From contig JALOQK010000008.1 of assembly GCA_025453395.1 (NCBI GenBank), positions 938 to 64,937 on the forward strand: a stretch of 64,000 nucleotides of DNA. Direction: 5' to 3'. The notes under the pieces were generated by a model that worked only from the letters and a program-made list of their open reading frames with translations, was not told the DNA's origin and searched no databases. Each line of letters starts with the position of its first letter. The first letter of the stretch is position 1. The DNA is from Candidatus Omnitrophota bacterium. Its GTDB lineage: Bacteria > Omnitrophota > Gorgyraeia > Gygaellales > Profunditerraquicolaceae. The position numbers were made by a program, and so were the translations under genes. Positions 4,555 to 57,051 of the stretch are shown piece after piece.

Positions 4555-6261
4555 TTATTCGTCAGCTACGGTAACCCTGACAACCTCTTCAATAGTAGTA
4601 AGCCCTCTTAGGGCTGAGTCTATGCCTTCTTCGCGTAAAGTCCTCATCCCCTCTTTCCTGGCTTGATCTTTAATCTGATATTCTTGAGCATGAGAAAGGA
4701 TCATATCCCGTATTTTAACGCTTAAGATAATGACTTCCGCGATAGCAACTCTGCCGCTATAACCAGTATTAAAACATAACGGACATTTCTTGGGGCGGTA
4801 AAATTCACTTTTACTTTTATCTAATTTTAATGCCTCTGCTATTTCCGGGCTTAATGTATATTTTTCTTTACAGTTGGAACAGATCTTACGCACCAACCTT
4901 TGCGCCACAATACCCACCACCGCCGAATTAATCAAGAATGGCTCTACTCCCATATTGATCAGGCGCACAATTGATCCAGCCGCAGTAGTAGTATGCAAAG
5001 TAGAAATAACCAAGTGCCCGGTCAAGGCGCTTTTTATGGCGATGTCCACTGTCTCATAATCACGGATCTCGCCGATCATGATAATGTTAGGGTCTTGCCT
5101 GAGGATTGCGCGCAGGGAACTGGCGAAAGTAAGGCCAATGTCGGGCTTAATGGTCACCTGATTTATCCCATCGAGCTGAAACTCAACCGGATCCTCAACA
5201 GTAACAATGTTTTTATGCGGATCATCCACAAATTTAAGTATGGAATAAAGAGTGGTAGTTTTTCCGCTTCCCGTGGGCCCGGTGACCAAAAACATTCCAT
5301 GCGGCATCTTTGAAGCTTGTTGGATCTTAGTAACATTATTATCAGAAAATCCCAATTTTGCTAAATCCAAGTTGGCTTGGGATTTATCAAGGATACGCAA
5401 TGCCACTTTCTCGCCAAAGCTTGAAGGAATAATGGAAACACGAAAATCTATTTCTCTTCCTGATATGCGCGCCTTAAAACGTCCATCCTGCGGCAGGCGG
5501 TGCTCAGCGATATTAAGATCTGACATGACCTTAACGCGTGAGACTATGGAAGCATGCATGTTAGCCGGGGGCGACTGTTGTTCCTGAAGAACACCGTCAA
5601 TACGAAAACGGACGCGCATTTTCTTGTCCCAAGGCTCGATCAAAATATCTGAAGATTTCTTCTTAACAGCGTCTTCAAGGATAAGATTGGTTACTCTTAT
5701 AACCGGCACTTCGCGGCTGACCCGGGTTAACTCCTGTTCGCTGGGTTGGTTTTCTTTCTCCTCTTTAATAAGTTCAATCCCGGGGACATTTATCTCCTTG
5801 ACCAAATCCTCCATCTCGTCTTTTGTAACATTGGGATAATACAGCTCTATAGCGGCAATAATATCCTGCATCCCGGAAATAATAGGATTAATATTATACC
5901 CGGTCAGGGATTTTACATGGTCAATAGCAAAAATATTCAAAGGATCAACCATAGCCAAAGTAATAGTCTGGCCTATTTTAGAAACGGCTATGATCTGATA
6001 ATGACGGGCGATTTCTACGGGGATTATTCTAGCTGTAGCGGGATCGATCTTAAAACGTTTTAAATCAATAAGCGGCAGGCCCAACCCCTGGCTTAGGATA
6101 GAAACCAAATCCTGTTCCTTGATAAAACCTAAAGAGACAACAATATCGCTTAAGCGGCCTGCCTTTTCCTTCTGGATAGCAATAGCCTTATCCAATTGCT
6201 CGGAAGACAAAAGCTTACTATTAACCAACACTTCTTTAAGACGGTCCTTTAAGGAAAGCAT
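4555..6261 (-). CDS. Second PilB/GspE-family ATPase (tandem paralog) with MshEN-type N-domain
   Basis: 568 aa. MshEN motifs (LKEVLVNSKLLSSEQLDKAIAIQ / RLSDIVVSLGFIKEQDLVSILSQ). Walker A GPTGSGKTT. C-terminal CSNCK...CPLCFNTG zinc motif. Confidence 0.9.
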   Translation of the reverse strand: MLSLKDRLKEVLVNSKLLSSEQLDKAIAIQKEKAGRLSDIVVSLGFIKEQDLVSILSQGLGLPLIDLKRFKIDPATARIIPVEIARHYQIIAVSKIGQTITLAMVDPLNIFAIDHVKSLTGYNINPIISGMQDIIAAIELYYPNVTKDEMEDLVKEINVPGIELIKEEKENQPSEQELTRVSREVPVIRVTNLILEDAVKKKSSDILIEPWDKKMRVRFRIDGVLQEQQSPPANMHASIVSRVKVMSDLNIAEHRLPQDGRFKARISGREIDFRVSIIPSSFGEKVALRILDKSQANLDLAKLGFSDNNVTKIQQASKMPHGMFLVTGPTGSGKTTTLYSILKFVDDPHKNIVTVEDPVEFQLDGINQVTIKPDIGLTFASSLRAILRQDPNIIMIGEIRDYETVDIAIKSALTGHLVISTLHTTTAAGSIVRLINMGVEPFLINSAVVGIVAQRLVRKICSNCKEKYTLSPEIAEALKLDKSKSEFYRPKKCPLCFNTGYSGRVAIAEVIILSVKIRDMILSHAQEYQIKDQARKEGMRTLREEGIDSALRGLTTIEEVVRVTVADE

Positions 6262-6293: not shown

Positions 6294-6737
6294 TTATTCA
6301 CTGTAATATTTGGAAATGGCCTGTTTTATATCTGAAGAAGTAGAAACAAAGGTCTGGATATTGCATCCGGTCAGCATTTCCACATCCTCGATAGCGTGGA
6401 CATTCAAAGGATTAGACATGGCTAAGGTCAAATTATTGCCTATTTTGTCTATCGGGATAAGCACGTATTGCTTGGCAACCCGGCACGGAACAATATTGGC
6501 TACATCAGAGCTTATTTCATAATTACCAAGCGGCAAATACGGAAAACCATACTGCGCGGTTAAGGATTGGGCGATATCTTCTTCCTTGGCAAACCCCAGC
6601 TCCACCATGATCTCTCCGATAAGGCCGCCTCTTTCTTTCTGGCAGTTCAACGCCTTATCAAGCTGGTCTGCGGATACAAGCCCGCGGTCCACCAACAATT
6701 CACCTAATTGCTTATTAATTATTCTTTTTATCGGCAT
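6294..6737 (-). CDS. Stand-alone MshEN (T2SSE_N) domain protein, putative c-di-GMP receptor
   Basis: 147 aa. Both tandem 24-residue MshEN motifs with a 5-aa spacer: QLGELLVDRGLVSADQLDKALNCQ-KERGG-LIGEIMVELGFAKEEDIAQSLTAQ. No ATPase domain. Confidence 0.75.
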   Translation of the reverse strand: MPIKRIINKQLGELLVDRGLVSADQLDKALNCQKERGGLIGEIMVELGFAKEEDIAQSLTAQYGFPYLPLGNYEISSDVANIVPCRVAKQYVLIPIDKIGNNLTLAMSNPLNVHAIEDVEMLTGCNIQTFVSTSSDIKQAISKYYSE

Positions 6738-18578: not shown

Positions 18579-19307
18579 TTAGCGTTTGTTAAGCTGGATC
18601 AGTTTTAGGCAAGCAAAGATAAAAAAACCCGCGCTTATAATCTGGAATAAGCTTAAGCCGTAAAAGAAATGCGGATTATCCGCGCGCAAGAATTCCATAA
18701 AAAACCTCTTGGTTGAGTATAATAAAAGATACCACAAGAATACCTGGCCCTGTCTATGGGGCTTATCCTGTAAGTTCTTCAGGAAAAGAAAAAGCGCAAA
18801 AAGAATAATGCTTGAATAAAGTTGCGTTGGAATAAGAAAGGCGTCATGCGCGGGAAAATACATCCCCCATATTTTGTTTTCCCTGCCGTAGCAACAGCCA
18901 TTTAAAAAACACCCCAGCCTGCCAATGGCATGGCCTAATGCCAAAAACGGCGCCAATAGATCAAGTACCGTGTAGATTCTTAATTTGTTTCTTTTGACAT
19001 AATATAACGCGGTTAATGACCCGGCAGTAAAACCGCCAAACCAGGACATTCCGCCGTGCTGCAGCATGATTATTTCTAAAGGTTCAGCCAAATAATCCCT
19101 AAAATGCTCTACTACAAAAAATATCCGCGCCCCCAAAATCCCCGCGATAAAAGAATAAAAACAAAGATTGTAGATTATGTTGGGATCTATCCCTTGCTTC
19201 TTAGCCTGACGGCAAGCTAAGGATACCGCGGTTAAAAAAGCAACAACCATCATTAAACCGTAGGAATAAATGGTAAATGGACCGATTTGACAGATAATTG
19301 GATGCAT
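18579..19307 (-). CDS. lgt: Prolipoprotein diacylglyceryl transferase
   Basis: 242 aa polytopic membrane protein. N-terminus MHPIICQIGPFTIYSYGLMMVVAF and Lgt signature region GHAIGRLGCFLNGCCYG. Confidence 0.9.
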   Translation of the reverse strand: MHPIICQIGPFTIYSYGLMMVVAFLTAVSLACRQAKKQGIDPNIIYNLCFYSFIAGILGARIFFVVEHFRDYLAEPLEIIMLQHGGMSWFGGFTAGSLTALYYVKRNKLRIYTVLDLLAPFLALGHAIGRLGCFLNGCCYGRENKIWGMYFPAHDAFLIPTQLYSSIILFALFLFLKNLQDKPHRQGQVFLWYLLLYSTKRFFMEFLRADNPHFFYGLSLFQIISAGFFIFACLKLIQLNKR

Positions 19308-19400
19308 AATTTTAATTTAAAGCTTAAAACGCAAAGCGTAAAACCATAGCGTAAAATTAAAAATTTTGAATTTTGAATTATAGTTTTGCGTTTTTCGTTT
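19308..19400. repeat. Palindromic intergenic element, copy 2 (inverted relative to copy 1)
   Basis: Its reverse complement matches 9960-10015 (aattttacgctatGgttttacgctttgcgTttta). Internally palindromic (aaaacgcaaagcgtaaaacc / ggttttacgc...). Confidence 0.5.
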
Positions 19401-19872
19401 TACGCTTATTTGTTATTAATATTGTCCATCCTAACAACATTGCTCCTGCTGTTATCGCCGAATCCGCGATATTGAACACCGGCCAGATACGAAAATCCAG
19501 AAAATCAACCACATAACCAAACATCAAACGGTCAATAAGATTTCCCAGGCCGCCGGCAAGGATCAAGGTTAAAGAAAAATTACAAAGGTTGTTCTTATAG
19601 CCCTCTTTTTTAAGCTTGCGGATTATAAAAAAACTCACCAGCAAAGTAATGGCGATAAAAATCCAGCGTTGATATTTGAATAGGCCAAATGCCGCGCCGC
19701 GGTTATGCACCAAAGTAACATGAAAAACATTCTGGATAACCGGGATAGATTGATAAAGGTATAGTTTTGAGGAAACAAAGGCCTTACTAAGCTGATCAGC
19801 AATAATAAGGCCAAAGAGAAATAAAGAAAATTTAAAGAAAGGTTTTATTTTTTTTCCAGTTTTTCCTGACAT
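19378..19872 (-). CDS. lspA: Lipoprotein signal peptidase II
   Basis: 164 aa. Conserved NRGAAFGLF and FNIADSAI motifs. Classic ileS-lspA linkage. Confidence 0.9.
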   Translation of the reverse strand: MSGKTGKKIKPFFKFSLFLFGLIIADQLSKAFVSSKLYLYQSIPVIQNVFHVTLVHNRGAAFGLFKYQRWIFIAITLLVSFFIIRKLKKEGYKNNLCNFSLTLILAGGLGNLIDRLMFGYVVDFLDFRIWPVFNIADSAITAGAMLLGWTILITNKRKTKNAKL

Positions 19873-20228: not shown

Positions 20229-23047
20229 GCTGAAATCCCCCCTATGGCTTTAAGGCAAGTCTTACAGATTGACGGATGCGCATCATCTTCCCCCACCGAA
20301 TGCGAATAATTCCAACAGCGCATGCATTTTACCCCATCTGCTTTACTGGCGGCCAGGCATACATCCGGAAAAACGGTATTACGCCAATCTCCACCAGAAA
20401 TAAGATCTTTGGATTCTTCCACAATCACAGAAGAAACTTTAAAGGCCTCACAGAGCTGTTGGCTTAAGCTGCGTAAGAATGTATACTGATTAGGGGACTT
20501 TGTCAATATATTTATTTTGGCGTCAAAAGAACTGCCGATTATTCCGGCAATGCGCTTCTCTTCTAAAGCCTTGGCAACATCGGGGACCATCTTAAGGACC
20601 TCTTCCATATCTTGATAAGCCAAAGAGCCATGGACCTTGCCGGATTCCAACAAAGACAAAATAAGCCTGGTATCTGGATATTCCAAAAGATGCACACTGG
20701 CGGCATCTTTATCTTTAGAAGTTTTAGGCATATAAAACCATATTTCTTCAGCGGTAAAAGACAAAATCGGCGCGACTACCCTTACGATCGCATTTAACAA
20801 ATCATATATCGCCGTCTGAGCAGACCTTCTTTCAAGGGAATCTGCCCCGTATGTATACAATCTGCCCTTTACCATATCCAAATAATACATGGATAGATCT
20901 TCATTGCAAAAATCATAAATACCTTTATAGGCTTTATAAAATTCAAATTCTTCATAGCCGTTTGTTATAACTTTATCAAGCGCAAGGCAACTTTTATAGA
21001 GTATCCATTTATCAAGCATGCCCATATCATCATAGCTTATTCTGTCTTTATCGGGATTAAAATCATAGAGGTTGCTTAAGATAAACCTGCAGGTGTTGCG
21101 CACTTTACGGTAACCTTCCGAGAGCCTTTGCAGGATTTCTTTGGATATTCTTATATCCTCGTTGTAATCGCTTGAAGCCACCCACAGGCGCAAAATATCC
21201 GCGCCATAGTCTTTTATAATATCAAATGGAGAAACCACATTGCCTTGCGACTTGGACATTTTTCTTCCCTGACCATCCACCACAAAACCATGGGTTAGGA
21301 CACTTTTAAATGGCGCCTGATTATCAATGCAGACAGCCGGGATAAGCGAAGACTGGAACCACCCCCTATGCTGGTCTGAACCCTCAAGGTACAAAGAAGC
21401 GGGAAATTCCAATTCACTTCTTTTCTTTAATACTGACTGGCTGCTTACTCCGGAATCAAACCATACATCAAGGATATCTGTGCCTTTAGAGAATATTTTT
21501 CCCGCGCAGCAAGGGCATTGGATGTCTTTATATAAAAACTCCTGCACGCCAGATTCAAACCAAACATCCGTTCCATTTTCTTTAACCATCTGGCGGAATA
21601 CCTCAATAACCTTATTATCCAGGAATTCTTCTTTGCAATTATTGCATACCAAAGAGGGAATCGGCACCCCCCAATATCTTTGACGCGATAAACACCAATC
21701 CGGGCGCAAGCCCACCATTGAACCAATGCGCTCTTTTCCCGAAGAGGGAATCCACTTCACCTTATTTTGGATTACTTCAAGTAAAGCCTGCCTGAGATTA
21801 TTATGTTCAAGTTTTAAGAACCATTGATTTGTCGCTCTGAAAATAACCGGTGACTTGCAGCGCCAGCAATGCGGATAAGAATGCGGATATTTCATGCTAT
21901 AAACAAGCATCCCTAAACTATCCAATTTTTGTATGATCGGATCATTGGCAGAAAATACCTGCATCCCTTTAAATTCACCGGTAGAAGCGTCAAAATTCCC
22001 CCGGTTATCAACCGGCATAATAATATCCAACTTGTATTTTATCCCGGTGAAATAATCGTCATTGCCATGCCCGGGAGCGGTATGCACCAAACCAGTGCCT
22101 TCTTCATGTGAAACATAATCTGCCAAAACTACTTTTCCTTTTCTATCTAAAAAAGGATGCTCATAAACAAGCCCATCCAGCTTTTCGCCTTTAATGCGGG
22201 AAATAACCGCACATTGGCCAAGGCCGGTATTTTTTATAACTGTATCGAGCAGGCTTTCGGCAATAACTAAAATTCCTTTCGCAGTGTTTACCAAAACATA
22301 TTCCAGTTTTTGATGCACTGCTACTGCCACATTAGCCAGAAGCGTCCAGGGGGTGGTAGTCCAAATCAATAAATAAGCGTCTTGGCCATCTAAGGGATTG
22401 GTTAATTTAAATTTCACATAAACAGAGGGAGAAACATGATCCTCGTATTCAACCTCTGCCTCGGCAAGGGCGGTTTCACATTTATAACACCAGTTAACCG
22501 GCTTTAATCCTCTATAGATATACCCCTTCTGCGCCAGTTTGCCAAAAGAATCCACTATCCCCTCTTCATACTGGCGTGATAAAGTAAGATACGGATTATC
22601 CCAATCCCCGAATATACCTAAACGCTTAAACTGTTCTTTCTGCAAACCCACATATTTCATCGCGTAATCATGCGCTTTCTTGCGGAAATCAAGCTGCGAT
22701 ATCTGGGTTTTATTGATCTTTAATTCCTTTAACAACTGATGCTCAATGGGCAACCCATGGCAATCCCAACCCGGAACATAGGCGCAATTAAAAGCACGCA
22801 TGGTTTTATATTTAAGAATGATATCCTTAAGTGTCTTGTTTAAGGCATGGCCTATATGTATATCCCCGTTGGCATAAGGCGGCCCGTCATGCAAAATATA
22901 TTTTGGCAAACCTTGAGTTTTATTCTGGATAGAAACGTAAATATTCTTCTTCTCCCACTGCTCAAAAATAACGGGCTCTTTCTTGGGCAGATCCGCCTTC
23001 ATGGGAAAATCAGTTTTAGGAAGATTAAGAGTAAGTTTATAGTCCAT
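20225..23047 (-). CDS. ileS: Isoleucyl-tRNA synthetase
   Basis: 940 aa. HIGH (DIHIGHALNK) and KMSKS motifs. N-terminus MDYKLTLNLPKTDFPMKADLPKKEP is canonical for IleS. C-terminal zinc-binding cysteines. Confidence 0.97.
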   Translation of the reverse strand: MDYKLTLNLPKTDFPMKADLPKKEPVIFEQWEKKNIYVSIQNKTQGLPKYILHDGPPYANGDIHIGHALNKTLKDIILKYKTMRAFNCAYVPGWDCHGLPIEHQLLKELKINKTQISQLDFRKKAHDYAMKYVGLQKEQFKRLGIFGDWDNPYLTLSRQYEEGIVDSFGKLAQKGYIYRGLKPVNWCYKCETALAEAEVEYEDHVSPSVYVKFKLTNPLDGQDAYLLIWTTTPWTLLANVAVAVHQKLEYVLVNTAKGILVIAESLLDTVIKNTGLGQCAVISRIKGEKLDGLVYEHPFLDRKGKVVLADYVSHEEGTGLVHTAPGHGNDDYFTGIKYKLDIIMPVDNRGNFDASTGEFKGMQVFSANDPIIQKLDSLGMLVYSMKYPHSYPHCWRCKSPVIFRATNQWFLKLEHNNLRQALLEVIQNKVKWIPSSGKERIGSMVGLRPDWCLSRQRYWGVPIPSLVCNNCKEEFLDNKVIEVFRQMVKENGTDVWFESGVQEFLYKDIQCPCCAGKIFSKGTDILDVWFDSGVSSQSVLKKRSELEFPASLYLEGSDQHRGWFQSSLIPAVCIDNQAPFKSVLTHGFVVDGQGRKMSKSQGNVVSPFDIIKDYGADILRLWVASSDYNEDIRISKEILQRLSEGYRKVRNTCRFILSNLYDFNPDKDRISYDDMGMLDKWILYKSCLALDKVITNGYEEFEFYKAYKGIYDFCNEDLSMYYLDMVKGRLYTYGADSLERRSAQTAIYDLLNAIVRVVAPILSFTAEEIWFYMPKTSKDKDAASVHLLEYPDTRLILSLLESGKVHGSLAYQDMEEVLKMVPDVAKALEEKRIAGIIGSSFDAKINILTKSPNQYTFLRSLSQQLCEAFKVSSVIVEESKDLISGGDWRNTVFPDVCLAASKADGVKCMRCWNYSHSVGEDDAHPSICKTCLKAIGGISA

Positions 23048-23051
23048 TTTT

Positions 23052-23106
23052 CAGCTATCAGCTATCAGCTATCAGCTATCAGCTATCAGCTATCAGCTAT
23101 CAGCTA
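23052..23106. repeat. Tandem heptanucleotide array (CAGCTAT)x~8 abutting the ileS start codon
   Basis: Perfect 7-nt repeats read directly at 23052-23106. On the minus strand the mRNA leader reads (ATAGCTG)n AAAA ATG. Confidence 0.95.
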
Positions 23107-23141
23107 AAAAAGCTGAAGACTGAAAGCTGAAGGCTGAAAGC
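23107..23141. repeat. Degenerate heptamer array (RCTGAAR)x4 between the mtnP stop and the CAGCTAT array
   Basis: The sequence read directly is gctgaag actgaaa gctgaag gctgaaa. Confidence 0.8.
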
Positions 23142-23999
23142 TTAAATATATTTTCCTATAATTATCTTTAAATCCTTTTTTACTTTCGCCGGAATCATTT
23201 TTCTATCAGTGACAATCGCGCATTTTAAGGCATCCTGACAAGAACATACGCGCTTGTCAGGCAGCGCTTTAACGATCTGAATAATCATTTTCTTGGCGTT
23301 TTCAATATTCCTTTGCAGATTTTGCATCACCATATCCACCGTCACGCTTGCGTGCTTGGGATACCAGCAGTCATAATCTGTAACAGCGGCCAAAGTAGAG
23401 TAACATATCTCTGCTTCTCGGGATAGTTTTGCTTCAGCCATATTGGTCATTCCAATTATGTCCATGCCCCAACTTCGGTAAAGATTCGATTCAGCCAAAG
23501 TTGAGAATGCCGGGCCTTCCATGTTAATATAAGTCCCGCGAGGATGAATGTCTAATTTCAGCTTCTCGCCCGCAGCATAAACTACCTTTGCCAAATCTTG
23601 GCAAACAGGATGCGCGAAAACTATATGCGCCACAATGCCTTCATCAAAAAATGTCATCGCGCGAGCGTTATTAGTGCGGTCCACAAACTGATCAATAACC
23701 ACAAAATCAAGCGGCTTGAATTCTTCTTTAAGGCTGCCGCAGGCGCTTATGGAAACAATGCTTTCCACGCCAAGTTTCTTCATCCCATAAATATTGGCGC
23801 GGTAATTTATTTGGCTGGGAGAAATACAATGCCCTCTTCCGTGGCGAGGAAGAAAAACAACTTCTTTGCCCTCTATTTTCCCGGTAATAAATTTATCTGA
23901 AGGCTTGCCAAAAGGAGTGCTTAATGCGACCTCTTTTATGCCCTTCAAACTATCAATCTGATATAAACCGCTACCGCCAATAATCCCCAATTTAGACAT
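23142..23999 (-). CDS. mtnP: S-methyl-5'-thioadenosine phosphorylase
   Basis: 285 aa PNP/MTAP fold. Glycine-rich N-terminus LGIIGGSGLY. Confidence 0.88.
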   Translation of the reverse strand: MSKLGIIGGSGLYQIDSLKGIKEVALSTPFGKPSDKFITGKIEGKEVVFLPRHGRGHCISPSQINYRANIYGMKKLGVESIVSISACGSLKEEFKPLDFVVIDQFVDRTNNARAMTFFDEGIVAHIVFAHPVCQDLAKVVYAAGEKLKLDIHPRGTYINMEGPAFSTLAESNLYRSWGMDIIGMTNMAEAKLSREAEICYSTLAAVTDYDCWYPKHASVTVDMVMQNLQRNIENAKKMIIQIVKALPDKRVCSCQDALKCAIVTDRKMIPAKVKKDLKIIIGKYI

Positions 24000-24008
24000 T
24001 TTGTCCTC

Positions 24009-24830
24009 CTAGGCAGCTAATTCTTTAGCCCTTTTAATAGACGCCATGATCGCGTCTTTTAATGTCCCGCCAGAATTAAGCACATCTAAGCCTGCCTGGG
24101 TTGTCCCGCCTTTAGATGCCACCTGCTGACGCAGCCCTACAGGATCCGCGCCATTCTCAAGCATTTTGTCTGCCCCGCGCAAAGTAATCAAAGACATAAA
24201 ATGTGCCTGATCAGGGCTGAACCCTAAAGACCTTGCCGCATCCTCAAGCTCGGCGGTAAAATTTTCCATAAAACCAGACCAGTTATTTTTATAAGCTTCC
24301 GGGTTATTGGCTACCGCGTTAAAAAACCACCCCGGCCCACTGCCGGAAATCGCGGTAGCTTCATCCATTTTCGCTTCGTCAATAGCCATAACTTCTCCCA
24401 TATACTCAAATACATCTTGCGCGAAATCAAAATCTTCAAGGCTGGCGTATTTACCAGAGCACAAGCAAGTCATCCCATAACCAATACGAGCAGGCATATT
24501 TGGCATAACCCTAACCACCCTAACCACCCCTAAAAGGTTTTCTATATAAGAAGTGCCCAGGCCGGCTGCGATAGAAATAAAAAGTTTATCCAGAATATGC
24601 GGGTACTTTTTTATTTGGCCTAAAAGTTCTGCGAAATCCTGCGGTTTCACCGCCAAAATTATCGCGTCCGCTTTCTCCAGTAATTCCTGGATAGAACCTA
24701 CCGCTTGGATATCTTCAACAGAAGATACCCTAGCCTTATCCTTTTCATAGGCAAAAACCGTATAAGTATTTTTTATCTTTGAGGCGATTGCCTGGCCCAT
24801 GTTGCCTAAACCGATTATCCCTATTTTCAT
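24009..24830 (-). CDS. proC: Pyrroline-5-carboxylate reductase
   Basis: 273 aa. N-terminal NADP Rossmann motif IGIIGLGNMGQAIA. ProC C-terminal dimerisation domain. Confidence 0.9.
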   Translation of the reverse strand: MKIGIIGLGNMGQAIASKIKNTYTVFAYEKDKARVSSVEDIQAVGSIQELLEKADAIILAVKPQDFAELLGQIKKYPHILDKLFISIAAGLGTSYIENLLGVVRVVRVMPNMPARIGYGMTCLCSGKYASLEDFDFAQDVFEYMGEVMAIDEAKMDEATAISGSGPGWFFNAVANNPEAYKNNWSGFMENFTAELEDAARSLGFSPDQAHFMSLITLRGADKMLENGADPVGLRQQVASKGGTTQAGLDVLNSGGTLKDAIMASIKRAKELAA

Positions 24831-24836
24831 TTTATC

Positions 24837-25526
24837 TTACCTTTCAAATATCGCTCTGCCTAATCTTATTATTGTGGCGGCTTCTTCAATAGCAATTTCA
24901 AAATCATCGCTCATGCCCATGGAAAGCTGTAAGCTATAAGCTGTAAGCTTTAAGCTGTAAATCTTATCCCTTAATTCCCTAAGCTGGCGAAAATAGGGAC
25001 GCGCTTCTTCGGGCGCACTAACTAAAGGGGCGATGGTCATTAAACCTTTTAATTTTATATTTTTTAAAGAAGCGATCTGTTTTATAACCAAAACCGCGTC
25101 ATCAGGACTTAAACCAAATTTTGTTTCTTCTGGAGAAGTCTTTATCTGTAGTAATATCTGCTGTACTTTATTGATCTTGGCAGCCTGCCTATCGATTTCC
25201 TCTGCCAGGCGCAGGCTATCTACAGAATGAATCAAATCAAAGATCCTAACCGCATCTTTTACTTTATTAGTCTGCAAGTGGCCGATCATATGCCATTTAA
25301 TGGCAAATGGCAAATGGCAAATGGCAGACAGCTGATTAAATTTCAAAACAGCTTCTTGGACTTTATTCTCGCCGATATCAGATATGCCCTGTTGTAAAAC
25401 CTCTTGTATTTCTTGGGCGCTTCTGCCCTTGGCTACCGCAACAATAGTTATTTCAGAAGGGTCGCGGTTTGCTTTAAGGCAGGCCTGACCGACACGAAAA
25501 CTAACATCAGCCAATCCATTATACAT
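24837..25526 (-). CDS. yggS: YggS/YlmE-family PLP homeostasis protein
   Basis: 229 aa. HMIGHLQTNK and LSMGMSDDF signatures. Carries two in-frame heptamer-repeat insertions. Confidence 0.85.
   Translation of the reverse strand: MYNGLADVSFRVGQACLKANRDPSEITIVAVAKGRSAQEIQEVLQQGISDIGENKVQEAVLKFNQLSAICHLPFAIKWHMIGHLQTNKVKDAVRIFDLIHSVDSLRLAEEIDRQAAKINKVQQILLQIKTSPEETKFGLSPDDAVLVIKQIASLKNIKLKGLMTIAPLVSAPEEARPYFRQLRELRDKIYSLKLTAYSLQLSMGMSDDFEIAIEEAATIIRLGRAIFER
24924..24960. repeat. Heptamer tandem array (AAGCTNT)x5 inside the yggS coding sequence
   Basis: aagctgt aagctat aagctgt aagcttt aagctgt. Encodes YSLKLTAYSLQ just before the LSMGMS motif. Confidence 0.9.
25299..25326. repeat. Heptamer tandem array (AATGGCA)x4 inside the yggS coding sequence
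   Basis: Four perfect copies. Encodes the atypical insert HLPFAIKW immediately before the conserved HMIGHLQTNK. Confidence 0.9.
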
Positions 25527-25547
25527 AAAAACCCCTGAGGCACAATC

Positions 25548-26804
25548 TTAAAAATACTCCAGGTACAAAGCCTTGGCTTGATCAACTAACCTCTGTAATG
25601 GTTTGCGGCTAGCGTCATGAGGAAAAATAAACCCGGGCAATTTATCGTTTTCCAAAACCTCAACTAAAATGCCAAGGCAGGTAAGATACCCCAAATATTT
25701 CATCCCGGAAAGTTTAGGGTGGTTGATCAATGAAGAAACTCTCTGGGAGCTGACACGGGCAAGCTGCACCGGAAAAGAAAAAACAGACTCTGCTTTCTCC
25801 AAGAAACCTTCCTGTAAAACTGTGCCTCCGTATAAAACAAAATTAGTCACTTGGTTACTATTAAAATTAACAAAGGCATTTTTCTTGATTTCTTCAAGCA
25901 AACACTTTGCGCTATTGGTCACAACATCAACGATAAGCTTATGGCTTATCGGCTTATAGATATTATCCCTTTTGATTAAGATTTCTTTATCTACTGCAGG
26001 CGAAGCTGCCAAATAAATACTGCCGTATGTTTTCTTTACTTCTTCAGCCAAAGAATAAGGAATTCCTATTTCTTTAGAAATGGCCAGCGTAATATCATCT
26101 CCTCCGATGGGCAAATTGTGCACTTCTTTTAACATGCCATTTTCTAAGATAACAAGCTGCGTTATGTCGCTTCCAATATCGCAGAAAATACTTAAACCCT
26201 GCTTCATTTTCTCTTCAAAAAGAAGCTTGCTGGTAATCATCCCTGAATAAAATACCTCTTTTAAGTCAAGCCCCGCCTGACTTATAGCGCCAGTTAAATT
26301 CTGAAGGCAAGAAAGGCGCGCGCAAATAAGGTACAAATCTACCTGCAAACGGTGGCTGTATAGGCCTATTGGGTTGACAATATCTGCTTTATTATCAATA
26401 GCGTAACCAAAAGGCACCTCTGCAATAATCTCATCTTCCATGTTAGATCCCAAAATCCGCGCCTGAAGATTGGCTTTTTCTACATCAAAAGAAGTAATTA
26501 CCTTATTGCCTCTTTCCGCCAAAGGGATGATCGCATGGCTATGACGGGCGCTTATATCCTCACCGGCGATATTAGCATAAACATATTTTATCTGAATGCC
26601 GGAATTATTTCTAATCTTCTTGAATAAACTGCCTAAGGCTTTTACCAATTCTATTGAATCAACAACCGACCCTCTTCTTAGGCCGCAGGAAGGGATACTT
26701 TCAAAGAAAACCTCAGCAATCTTGCCTTGGGCAAGCCTTGCTACAGCCACAGATATCTTGCTTGATCCTATATCTAACGCGCAGATACTACGTTTACTGA
26801 ACAT
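25548..26804 (-). CDS. ftsA: Cell division protein FtsA
   Basis: 418 aa actin-fold. ALDIGSSKI phosphate-1 motif. Position downstream of ftsQ at the end of the dcw cluster. C-terminal extension. Confidence 0.9.
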   Translation of the reverse strand: MFSKRSICALDIGSSKISVAVARLAQGKIAEVFFESIPSCGLRRGSVVDSIELVKALGSLFKKIRNNSGIQIKYVYANIAGEDISARHSHAIIPLAERGNKVITSFDVEKANLQARILGSNMEDEIIAEVPFGYAIDNKADIVNPIGLYSHRLQVDLYLICARLSCLQNLTGAISQAGLDLKEVFYSGMITSKLLFEEKMKQGLSIFCDIGSDITQLVILENGMLKEVHNLPIGGDDITLAISKEIGIPYSLAEEVKKTYGSIYLAASPAVDKEILIKRDNIYKPISHKLIVDVVTNSAKCLLEEIKKNAFVNFNSNQVTNFVLYGGTVLQEGFLEKAESVFSFPVQLARVSSQRVSSLINHPKLSGMKYLGYLTCLGILVEVLENDKLPGFIFPHDASRKPLQRLVDQAKALYLEYF

Positions 26805-26821
26805 GTGATCCTTATCCTTTT

Positions 26822-27583
26822 TTAGTCAGTCTCATAGAATTTGATTGCCGGCTCCTTAAAACGTAAATCCACATACTTGATATTTATATTACTTTTTGAC
26901 GACTGATTAAGCAGGTTTCCCAAAAGGCTTATTTTTTCTTTTAAGTCTGCCAGGTCAAACCTCACTTCTATTCCCCTGCCAAAAGGCAATGGATAGATCA
27001 TGCAAGAAAAACCTTCCGGCGGGCTTGCGTCTATTTCCCGCAAGGCATAGCCCTTAAGGCTTTTCTTTTCCCTAAAAGCTGTGGCTATTTCTATGGCCAA
27101 TTTTAATTCACGCACCTGGTATTTCTTGCCTGACTGGGCGCCGAATATCTTTGTATCAAGCCCGGTGATTACCGGCATTCCGGTAACGGGAGAATTTTCT
27201 TCGCAAAGAAATAATACCCCTTCTTCATCGGTATAAAAATACCGGTATAATTTCACAAAGGCCACGGGAGACCTTTTCAAAAAATCAACCCATAAGATAC
27301 CGGGCAATAAACGGGTAATCCTGATCTTGCTGTAACCGGAATACCTATTCTCAAGTTGAAGCGACAAAGCCCGCAGATCGACTGAGAAGATATTGCGCCC
27401 CTTCAAATAAGAAAGGTTGAATTCATTATTTTTAGACGCTACCTCTTGGATTATGAAATATTCCGATTGCCTTAAGAACATGGAGATGCCGGATACGCAA
27501 GAAGCAACGCCTAAAACAAGAATTATAAGTATAACCCCTATAGCAAAGAATTCTTTGTTTTTCTTAAAGGCTTTGGCAGACAT
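26822..27583 (-). CDS. ftsQ: Cell division protein FtsQ/DivIB
   Basis: 253 aa. Single N-terminal TM, POTRA-like region. Position between ddl and ftsA. Confidence 0.7.
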   Translation of the reverse strand: MSAKAFKKNKEFFAIGVILIILVLGVASCVSGISMFLRQSEYFIIQEVASKNNEFNLSYLKGRNIFSVDLRALSLQLENRYSGYSKIRITRLLPGILWVDFLKRSPVAFVKLYRYFYTDEEGVLFLCEENSPVTGMPVITGLDTKIFGAQSGKKYQVRELKLAIEIATAFREKKSLKGYALREIDASPPEGFSCMIYPLPFGRGIEVRFDLADLKEKISLLGNLLNQSSKSNINIKYVDLRFKEPAIKFYETD

Positions 27584-45555: not shown

Positions 45556-45627
45556 CCCCCACAACTAAACCCCACCCTTAACCCCTGCCTACCGGCAGGC
45601 AGGCACAACCCATAACCCATAACTGAC
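45556..45627. repeat. C-rich / G4-prone tract with (AACCCAT)x2 heptamers and a cctgcctaccggcaggcagg palindrome
   Basis: Runs CCCCC, CCCC, CCC, CCCC on the + strand, so the minus-strand transcript has 4 or more G-runs. Heptamer aacccat aacccat aactgac. Confidence 0.6.
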
Positions 45628-53514: not shown

Positions 53515-53535
53515 GTTTCCTCCTTTTTTTTATCA

Positions 53536-53696
53536 ACTAAATATATAATCCCAATAACCAATGACCAAATCTCAATCACCAAATAAATTCCAATAATCAA
53601 TAACCAATTTACCAAACAGGTTTGGTAAATTGGGCAATTGGTAATTGGTTATTGTTTGATTATTGGTGCTTGATAATTGGTTATTAATCATATGAA
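53536..53696. repeat. Long imperfect palindrome built from CCAAT/ATTGG units between ribBA and ribH
   Basis: Arms ...ccaataatcaataaccaatttaccaaac / gtttggtaaattgggcaattggtaattggttattgtttgattattgg centred on ccaaacaggtttgg (53612-53625). Confidence 0.5.
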
Positions 53697-53719
53697 CTAT
53701 TGATATTTATGCCCACTAT

Positions 53720-54931
53720 TCACCTTATATCTAAATGATGACCCATCTTCTCTTTTTTAGTCTTAAGATACCTGTAATTAACATTGTTAGGCTCTATCTC
53801 TATGGGAAGCCGCTCAACAACTTTAAGCCCATACCCTTCAAGCCCTACTATCTTGCGTGGATTATTGGTCATAAGACGGATATTCTTTATTCCTAAATCC
53901 ACCAAAATCTGCGCCCCAATGCCATAGTCGCGTAAGTCCGGCTTAAAACCTAAAGCCTGATTTGCCTCTACTGTATCAAGGCCTTTATCCTGAAGCGCGT
54001 AGGCGCGGATTTTCTCTACCAAACCAATGCCTCTGCCCTCCTGATTCATGTATAAGATGACACCTTTTTTCTCTTTTTCAATAAGCTGCATGGCTTTTTT
54101 AAGCTGCCTGCCGCAGTCACAACGTAAAGATGAAAAAACATCCCCGGTTAAACATTCTGAATGCACCCTGACTAAAACATTTTCATTGCCAAATTCACCC
54201 ATAGCCAAGACTGTATGCACCTGATTATTCACCAAATCTTTATACAGAATAAGCTTATAAGTACCGTATTCGGTTGGGACATCTGTTTCTGCAACCCGCT
54301 TAATTAATTTTTCATAACGCCTGCGGTACTGAATTAAATCTGCGATGGAACATATTCTTAGGTTATGCCTAGAGGCAAATTCCTTCAACTGAGGCAATCT
54401 TGCCATAGTGCCGTCTTCATTCATGATCTCGCAAATAACCCCGGCCGGATACAAGCCAGCGAGTTTAGCTAAATCCACGCAAGCTTCAGTATGGCCAGAA
54501 CGCACCAAGACCCCGCCCTTCTGCGCCCTTAAGGGAAACAAATGGCCCGGACGGATCAAATCTTCCGGCAAAGACTGCGGATTAATCAACACTTCTATTG
54601 TATGTGCGCGGTCATGCGCTGAAATGCCAGTGGCAATCCCTCTGGAAGCATCCACAGAAACCATCCAAGCGGTAGAAAATTTGTCTTTGTGGAAAGAAAT
54701 GTTTTTATCCATAAACATAGGCCCTAAATTAAGCGCGCTAAGCCTTTCTTCTTCCATGGGCACGCAAATAAGGCCTCTGCCGAATTTAGCCATAAAATTA
54801 ATGTGTTCGGCCTTAACAAAAGAGGCAGCCATCAAAAGGTCGCCTTCGTTCTCGCGGGATTCATCATCCACGACTACGACCATTTTGCCGTTTTTTAAGT
54901 CTTCTAAGATTTCTGGAATTGAGTTAAACAT
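53720..54931 (-). CDS. ribBA: Bifunctional 3,4-dihydroxy-2-butanone-4-phosphate synthase / GTP cyclohydrolase II
   Basis: 403 aa. DHBP synthase N-half (RENEGDL) and GTP cyclohydrolase II C-half with CxxC zinc ligands ([20 protein letters not shown]). Confidence 0.92.
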
Positions 54932-56995: not shown

Positions 56996-57051
56996 TAATT
57001 CCCCGCAACCCACCCCCATCCCCGACTCACAACTCAGAACTCAGAACTCAT
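56996..57051. repeat. C-rich (G4-prone on minus strand) tract followed by an (AACTCAG)x3 heptamer array
   Basis: ccccgcaacccacccccatcccc then gactcac aactcag aactcag aactcat, in the pgsA-pgpA intergenic region. Confidence 0.6.

Follow-up and report, generated by a model that had tools for sequence, protein, structure and literature searches.

Heptanucleotide repeat arrays translated in frame at two loops of YggS across a clade of Omnitrophota

Microsatellites with a non-triplet unit are normally purged from coding DNA, phase-variable genes excepted. In the window, by which we mean the whole 64-kb stretch of Omnitrophota DNA that was analysed, tandem 7-nt units were observed inside the coding sequence of an intact yggS gene. 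This raises the question of whether the units are a genuine repeat of the DNA, when they entered the gene, and how a period of seven can persist in a reading frame. The features considered here are the following:

24837..25526, minus strand: yggS, encoding a PLP-homeostasis protein (PF01168); an intact 229-aa ORF that hosts both coding arrays
24924..24960, minus strand: the site-2 heptamer array, our main finding; residues 190-200, YSLKLTAYSLQ
25299..25326, minus strand: the site-1 heptamer array, four perfect copies of TGCCATT in the sense direction; residues 67-76, AICHLPFAI
23051..23142, minus strand: the arrays of the MTAP-ileS spacer, an AGCT-core family with a long hairpin

The 229-aa product matched Ala_racemase_N in Pfam (E 3e-20) and solved PLP-homeostasis proteins in the PDB (E 3e-39 to 1e-24), and an identical protein, from a Candidatus Omnitrophica MAG, is listed in NCBI as a YggS family enzyme. 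It consists of a single Ala_racemase_N-type barrel of ~230 aa with the conserved motifs of YggS, of which K33, HxIGHLQ and LSMGM were invariant in an alignment of 30 orthologs. The host protein is an ordinary member of the YggS/PLPBP/PipY family (PF01168), with the PLP-lysine region, LSMGMS and HxIGxLQ kept; unlike other members, it has two loops preceding beta-strands that are encoded by heptamer arrays. The loops were placed using AlphaFold2 secondary structure (a poor model, mean pLDDT 65) combined with alignment to solved homologues. The site-2 array is predicted in this way to form the loop that leads from the last long helix into the LSMGMS strand, and the site-1 array the loop preceding the KWHMIGHLQ strand. 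Such loops of the YggS fold lie away from the PLP site.

On the plus strand, the site-2 array reads AAGCTGT AAGCTAT AAGCTGT AAGCTTT AAGCTGT AA, which corresponds to the sense units ACAGCTT, AAAGCTT, ACAGCTT, ATAGCTT and ACAGCTT. Tandem Repeats Finder described it as 5.3 copies of period 7 with 86% matches, or alternatively as period 14 with 95% matches. Lag-7 nucleotide identity at the array was 0.71-0.79, varying with the stretch measured. Three consecutive copies of AAGCTNT were unique to this array within the window, with an expectation of 0 in 100 shuffles. When the 64-kb window was scanned for periods 4-15, strong periodicity was found in five segments at period 7, in three at period 14, and at no other period; the five segments represent four distinct arrays, as two of them overlap within site 2. 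The translation of the yggS ORF contains RELRDKIYSLKLTAYSLQLSMGMSDD, covering the site-2 array peptide. The first-pass annotation had described tandem AAGCTNT units in the yggS coding sequence, read in frame as YSLKLTAYSLQ directly before LSMGMS, and the ORF agrees with that description in every detail. A chance origin, or an ancestral non-repeat peptide at site 2, is ruled out by the shuffles together with the 7-nt periodicity of the orthologs described below. The heptamer array is a feature of the DNA itself, periodic at the nucleotide level and in frame. No RNA structure was detected for the coding array (z -0.15), and an Rfam search returned no match for it. Site 1 has AATGGCA in four copies on the plus strand, just ahead of KWHMIGHLQ.

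To place the arrays in time, yggS was compared with its relatives. The best 120 homologues were 59-69% identical and all ~230 aa in length, and those that are named all belong to Omnitrophica/Omnitrophota. Over the wider range of 51-69% identity, orthologs share the length of the site-2 loop and bear heptamer arrays in it. In the alignment of 30 orthologs, the site-2 array had the same length throughout, bar one codon. The spacing at site 2 was 26 aa in 93 of 108 orthologs (19 in two, 33 in one), and that at site 1 was 26 aa in 66, 25 in 15, 27 in 13, 19 in two and 18 in two. The nearest solved homologue aligned without gaps across the site-2 loop. A recent insertion specific to this genome is excluded by the ortholog lengths and this gap-free alignment. 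The earlier suggestion that the units were inserted into yggS, to be defined by aligning orthologs, is thus contradicted by that very alignment, in which the loop length is shared. Near-identical site-2 peptides occurred in some orthologs, such as YSLKLTAYNLQ in P0009 and NNLQLTAYSLQL in P0003, and different period-7 peptides in others, such as ELRVTSYELRV and LSTIDYRLST. The site-1 peptides of orthologs are likewise 7-aa periodic (LSTIDYRLSTI, LRTPNSELRTV, LTPNAQHLTPI). The first-pass annotation had named orthologs with the same peptide lacking nucleotide periodicity as the observation that would speak against a repeat insertion; since the orthologs have 7-aa-periodic peptides and are 7-nt periodic at site 2, this test does not apply to the locus.

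The periodicity has been retained although the peptides diverge widely (CHLPFAI, RLSTIDY, NTQYSML, ELRVTSY). Among 119 orthologs, at least three lag-7 residue matches per 14-residue window were found at site 1 in 36% and at site 2 in 50%, compared with 2.2% elsewhere in the same proteins; not a single lag-7 residue match was present in 33 of the 119 at site 1 and in five at site 2. At the DNA level, yggS was retrieved from 172 loci, with loci of other phyla from a contig search serving as controls. At both sites, Omnitrophota orthologs had a lag-7 nucleotide identity of 0.55-0.9 and a lag-14 identity of 0.6-0.9, as against a lag-7 identity of about 0.25 in yggS of other phyla (~80-140 genes). 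Deeper Omnitrophota orthologs (L085, L090, L021, L092 and L093) were without periodicity. The arrays occupy the same two yggS positions in >100 orthologs at a near-constant ~33 nt, and perfect arrays are common (L161, L165, L166, L084 and site 1 of the window). The unit differs by genome: CTTACAG, GTTACGA, CAGCTAT, CAGCTGT, CGTTACC, GGGATTT, ACTATCG, ATACTCA, ACTCCGA, CGGGATA and ATCGGGT were all found in yggS. At least ten unrelated units occur across the clade, and none is conserved clade-wide. The yggS arrays are old and clade-wide, and they probably predate the radiation of the clade.

A census of the surrounding DNA counted 27 arrays of period 7 in the Omnitrophota loci (359 kb), in which every other period from 4 to 15 gave at most four, and six arrays of period 7 in the control loci (1387 kb). 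The syntenic 20-kb loci, which contain the dcw cluster, ftsA, yggS, proC, MTAP, ileS, dksA, lspA, lgt and rluD, had 24 coding arrays, of which 17 lay in yggS, yet this gene makes up only ~3.5% of the DNA. The array-bearing gene in these loci was usually yggS alone.

Some further properties of the neighbourhood were noted. In the window (24837-27583) and in the syntenic loci L161-L168, ddl-ftsQ-ftsA directly adjoins yggS without ftsZ, and the tubulin/FtsZ signature GGGTG[ST]G had zero occurrences across the 64-kb window. The neighbouring proC holds a 9-nt repeat at 24508-24529 (ACCCTAACC, 2.4 copies), which encodes VVRVVRV ahead of the MPN motif. It was considered as an insertion and rejected, as orthologs have xVRVIRV at the same length. 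The plus strand of this repeat holds CCCTAA, and its telomere likeness is coincidental.

Outside yggS, the arrays of the window are intergenic, and at least six unit types are present in the window. The MTAP-ileS spacer (23040-23150) consists almost wholly of arrays. On its plus strand, (TCAGCTA)x8 at 23051-23106 is accompanied by an approximate inverted partner at 23109-23142; in the sense direction this reads as (CAGCTTT/CAGTCTT)n and then (TAGCTGA)x8. The long hairpin so formed in the RNA (-49.6 kcal/mol, z -6.1) stops 4 nt short of the ileS start codon. A search of known RNA families with this intergenic hairpin gave only sub-threshold microRNA-hairpin noise, and the spacer is missing from most syntenic loci. 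Another intergenic region, 53515-53720, holds CCAATAA (7.7 copies) and TTGGTAA (4.4 copies) in inverted orientation, forming a ~150-nt hairpin (-57.3 kcal/mol, z -5.1). Short intergenic arrays of ACTCAGA, AACCCAT, AATTTTG and GTTTTGC were seen at 57025-57050, 45607-45623 and 19319-19401, together with a 13-14-nt repeat, AAAGCGTAAAACGC.

The yggS unit had been related to the repeat in the ileS leader by the first-pass annotation, from which it concluded that one repeat family invades coding and non-coding DNA with the frame kept. Rotated units of yggS and the spacer match at six of seven positions (CAGCTTA/CAGCTTT and TAGCTTA/TAGCTGA) and have the AGCT core in common, which makes a relationship plausible on sequence grounds, a single pair of this kind not being strongly significant. 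Across genomes, the best match of a yggS unit to another unit was 5.6/7 within genomes versus 4.2/7 between them (permutation p ~0.03, n=5). In L087, yggS has GGGATTT and a spacer has the complement AAATCCC. In L163, ACTATCG occurs at three loci and its complement at a fourth, and the unit is found at both yggS sites and in a spacer. For a unit common to the two yggS sites of one gene, the DNA gave a weak signal (p 0.09, n=9) and the peptides a modest one (4-mers, 7 against 2.4 expected, p 0.006). The sister lineage L163 also has an in-frame heptamer array in murB, a lineage-specific insertion adding 7-9 aa, and two in-frame arrays in aroA, where one loop became an array with almost unchanged length. 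Given these shared unit families and the murB and aroA arrays of L163, the spread of a repeat family into coding and non-coding DNA is true of the clade; what does not hold is a fresh insertion into yggS at this locus.

The array-rich regions of L163 are 5890-5920, 18772-18802, 19210-19244 and 6397-6466 (murB, aroA and murB-ddl), and its murB-ddl spacer contains the inverted arrays AGTCTAT/ACTATAG. One of the aroA array positions is weakly periodic in other lineages, and L084 and L086 have arrays at the start of ddl.

To describe how the arrays evolve, 23 array-bearing loci were compared, with the following identities:

Within the array, at lag 7: 0.61 at site 1, 0.73 at site 2
33 nt downstream of the array, at lag 7: 0.21 at site 1, 0.31 at site 2
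The same 33 nt between orthologs, in register: 0.36 at site 1, 0.41 at site 2
Adjoining conserved codons, between orthologs: 0.78 at site 1, 0.77 at site 2

A unit is much more like the adjacent units of its array than like the corresponding unit of an ortholog, which points to concerted evolution. L002, which is ~95% identical to L162, has the same C>T change in two adjacent site-2 units. The loops grow or shrink 7 aa at a time. At the position where L083 carries five units of this family, L171 carries only two (CAGCTGT; CAGCTGTCAGCTGTA, QLSAV) and is shorter by exactly 21 nt. This two-unit state was observed at site 1 of L171:1068-1736 (P0009), where the loop is exactly 7 aa shorter, and it is either the seed state or the contraction of an array by three units. 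The non-array Omnitrophota L085, L090 and L093 are also 7 aa shorter, with a loop length of 20 versus 27 at site 1 and of 33-34 versus 41 at site 2. In most other bacteria, the site-1 loop measures 21 and the site-2 loop 41. The site-2 loop of the clade is thus as long as in most bacterial YggS and longer only in comparison with the deeper non-array Omnitrophota, and the site-1 loop exceeds that of most bacteria by 6-7 residues. Since the site-1 lengths are 27 in the clade and 20-21 in non-array Omnitrophota and other bacteria, site 1 represents a net expansion of ~7 aa.

The coding frame limits which units can occur. In register, the site-2 units follow NNN-YTA-Y, giving xLxxxxY. Loop position 2 has the Leu codon YTA, which returns after 21 nt as a second Leu, and in the third frame YTA forces TAY (Tyr) and CTG forces TGY (Cys). 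A Leu codon in heptamer register therefore yields the near-invariant xLxxxx(Y/C)xL without any selection for Tyr. As a heptamer array is read in three frames, stop codons are barred from all three of them. The restricted choice of units may in part explain why unrelated lineages repeatedly have the same one.

The arrays are uncoupled from the genes that carry them. Array identity and backbone identity were uncorrelated (r = -0.02 at site 2 and 0.19 at site 1). Where backbones were 80-90% identical, the paired arrays were mostly unrelated, and arrays were shared by ~1-2% of pairs, whatever the distance. One cluster at >=90% identity contained two unrelated site-1 alleles, and close relatives had wholly different arrays, or none, at this site. 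L170 and L169 are 100% identical over yggS apart from ~70 nt (nt 165-234). In this patch, L170 matches L164, to which it is otherwise about 85% identical, at 59 of 60 positions. This match of the patch to L164 indicates short-patch homologous recombination. The ftsA-yggS spacers of L169 and L170 (L169:3421-4000 and L170:1198-1422; 580 versus 225 nt) are completely different, with yggS and proC identical, and that of L170 holds a G/C-run hairpin; the difference suggests that small elements were inserted or replaced.

The site-2 array of the window, including the imperfect units AAAGCTT and ATAGCTT, is identical at 32 of 33 positions to that of L171 and at 31 of 33 to that of L172 (91-97%), on backbones that are 57-67% identical (64-68% in the 90 nt upstream of the array). 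At identical residues, codons were identical in 10 of 11 cases in the array and at a fraction of 0.47-0.50 in the backbone (Fisher p 0.005-0.009 for L171 and L172). The stretch common to the window and L171 spans ~75 nt (the array plus SMGMSDDFE) and is 96% identical. We read it as another exchanged patch, with nucleotide-level selection as the alternative. The window, L171 and L172 are not mutual nearest relatives by backbone. A backbone clade uniting the lineages with the window's array was also considered and rejected, P0009 and P0052 ranking 60-107 of 107 for the middle segment.

Heptanucleotide repeats are already known as kinds, both as SSR/STRR and as coding SSRs. Cyanobacterial STRRs, the nearest analogue in nature, form 7-bp hairpins between hupS and hupL, with a function described as unknown (PMC2670836), and STRRs inside the RNase P RNA gene are the subject, by its title, of Vioque 1997 (as cited in PMC2858038). 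In experiments on Pseudomonas pflu0185, a coding heptanucleotide tract arose and expanded via slipped-strand mispairing and acts as an on/off switch (bioRxiv 10.1101/2024.05.01.592015). Like the STRRs, the Omnitrophota arrays are made of tandem 7-nt units with only period 7 enriched; they comprise several unit families over many, mostly intergenic loci, and their inverted arrays fold (z -6.1 and -5.1). Arrays are also tolerated inside a functional gene, as would be the case for the RNase P RNA gene judging from that title. Unlike STRRs, they are translated as part of protein-coding sequence, they occupy two orthologous positions clade-wide with turnover of the unit, they are hosted by Omnitrophota and not by heterocyst-forming cyanobacteria, and their units differ from the canonical STRR units. 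The arrays may accordingly be likened to STRRs in their working, not counted among them, and homology is not claimed. Contingency SSRs are long tracts, usually found near the 5' end of surface, restriction-modification or regulatory genes. The yggS arrays resemble them, pflu0185 included, in having a non-triplet unit within an ORF and a likely origin by slippage seeded on a short repeat. They differ in being short tracts of 4-5 units, not 5'-terminal, in the gene of a housekeeping, PLP-binding cytoplasmic protein, and in showing no frame-breaking or frame-restoring copy-number differences between close relatives (170 loci). No literature on heptamer repeats in Omnitrophota was found. A housekeeping gene that carries translated in-frame arrays in two orthologous loops throughout a clade, with a turnover of the unit uncoupled from the gene tree, appears to be new.

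The explanation that we favour, and regard as reasonably probable, is that the arrays are an STRR-like heptanucleotide microsatellite, seeded by slippage, changed in three-unit steps, homogenised, tolerated in permissive surface loops and exchanged in short patches. A short native direct repeat would have seeded slipped-strand mispairing, and the two-unit state in one ortholog, CAGCTGTCAGCTGTA, is a possible relic of such a seed. The frame would then survive only if units were gained or lost in threes (21 nt, 7 aa), so that loop length would shift in steps of 7 aa. Slippage or conversion of units would keep the array homogeneous while the unit drifts, giving rise to concerted evolution, and the units would be restricted to those with Leu at its fixed position and no stop in three frames. 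Whole arrays would be carried across lineages by short-patch homologous recombination (~70 nt). The encoded peptide would be a tolerated linker without a function of its own, and the arrays would be tolerated because both sites are loops preceding beta-strands. Slippage would thus be the driver, and the arrays would be close to neutral.

Several observations speak against this explanation. Slippage should be infrequent in arrays as short as 4-5 units, but periodicity persists in most of >100 lineages. Single-unit slips would inactivate yggS, and homogenisation at constant length therefore needs transient frameshift intermediates or conversion events, neither of which was observed. The near-identical array of the window, L171 and L172 on divergent backbones requires either recombination with tight borders or selection at the nucleotide level. 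The excess of arrays in yggS (17 of the 24 coding arrays) is not predicted by a neutral model, and the period of 7 and the preference for yggS are both left unexplained.

The arrays could be actively maintained, either by a heptamer-specific renewing mechanism or as selected cis-elements or recombination cassettes, with the yggS loops as preferred targets. We consider this unlikely as a whole; if true, such maintenance would possibly be analogous to whatever makes cyanobacterial STRRs. Under selection as cis-acting nucleic-acid elements, the arrays would be sites of a heptamer-reading protein or RNA, or would promote recombination, and the coding sequence would accommodate them; in one variant, three heptamer units correspond to two turns of B-DNA. 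This would fit the retention of arrays of ~33 nt at two positions in >100 orthologs, the strong over-representation of yggS among array genes, the conservation of synonymous sites in the window's array above the backbone relative to L171 and L172, and the centring of both documented recombination patches on arrays. It is rather doubtful in view of the at least ten unrelated units with none conserved clade-wide, the decay of periodicity in 33 of 119 orthologs at site 1 and five at site 2, the lack of RNA structure and Rfam matches for the array, and the entirely different or absent site-1 arrays of close relatives. A trans-acting process, e.g. a dedicated enzyme of the kind speculated on for cyanobacterial STRRs, that writes or renews arrays from genome-specific templates would, if true, account for why the period is strictly 7, why loci have unit families in common and how arrays are replaced at constant length. 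It draws on the exclusive period of 7, on the units common to yggS and other loci of a genome (L087, L163 and the AGCT core in the window), on the sharing of 4-mers by the two yggS sites beyond chance (p 0.006), and on the aroA loop of L163 that turned into an array at almost the same length. We nevertheless regard it as very unlikely: no candidate gene was identified, the sole replacement resolved at the DNA level was ordinary allelic recombination, the Leu and no-stop limits on unit space could explain the recurrence, and the samples are small.

Phase variation of yggS, with the protein turned off or on again each time a 7-nt unit is gained or lost, would be favoured by an intra-ORF unit length that is not divisible by three. 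As yggS is dispensable in E. coli, an OFF state could be tolerable. Heptanucleotide tracts are moreover able to become evolved on/off switches (10.1101/2024.05.01.592015). Against this, none of 170 yggS loci was frameshifted (a single in-frame HSP each; ~25 array-bearing), none of 120 proteins was truncated at the arrays, and clusters at >=90% identity were without frame changes. The copy number is nearly constant at 4-5 units and differs only by three-unit steps, the arrays lie in mid-gene and near the 3' end, away from the 5' end, and YggS is a cytoplasmic housekeeping protein; we hold such switching to be even less probable than an array-writing process. Selection at the protein level for a 7-residue structural repeat, with the DNA repeat as a secondary effect, would account for the near-invariance of Leu at i and i+7 and of Tyr/Cys at i+5 at site 2. 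Nucleotide periodicity is present at 7 and 14 nt and not at 21 nt alone, with lag-7 and lag-14 nucleotide identities of 0.6-0.9, which is not the pattern of a protein-level repeat. Furthermore, Tyr/Cys is dictated by the Leu codon in heptamer register, the ortholog peptides are otherwise unrelated, and loops of the same length in other phyla are non-periodic, leaving this the least probable explanation, and one that we hardly credit. We retain the slippage-seeded, loop-tolerated microsatellite as the probable explanation.

The finding is that a 7-nt repeat is kept in frame at two loops of YggS in >100 lineages, with its unit turning over and its arrays swapped in patches. It provides a natural system in which to study how repeats slip and evolve in concert when the frame must be strictly kept. 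For the alignment or phylogeny of the clade, the YggS loops are unreliable. Omnitrophota represent a second, unrelated phylum with STRR-like heptamer repeats and, as the origin and role of STRRs are described as unknown (PMC2670836), genomes bearing such repeats and genomes free of them could be compared to find the responsible factor.
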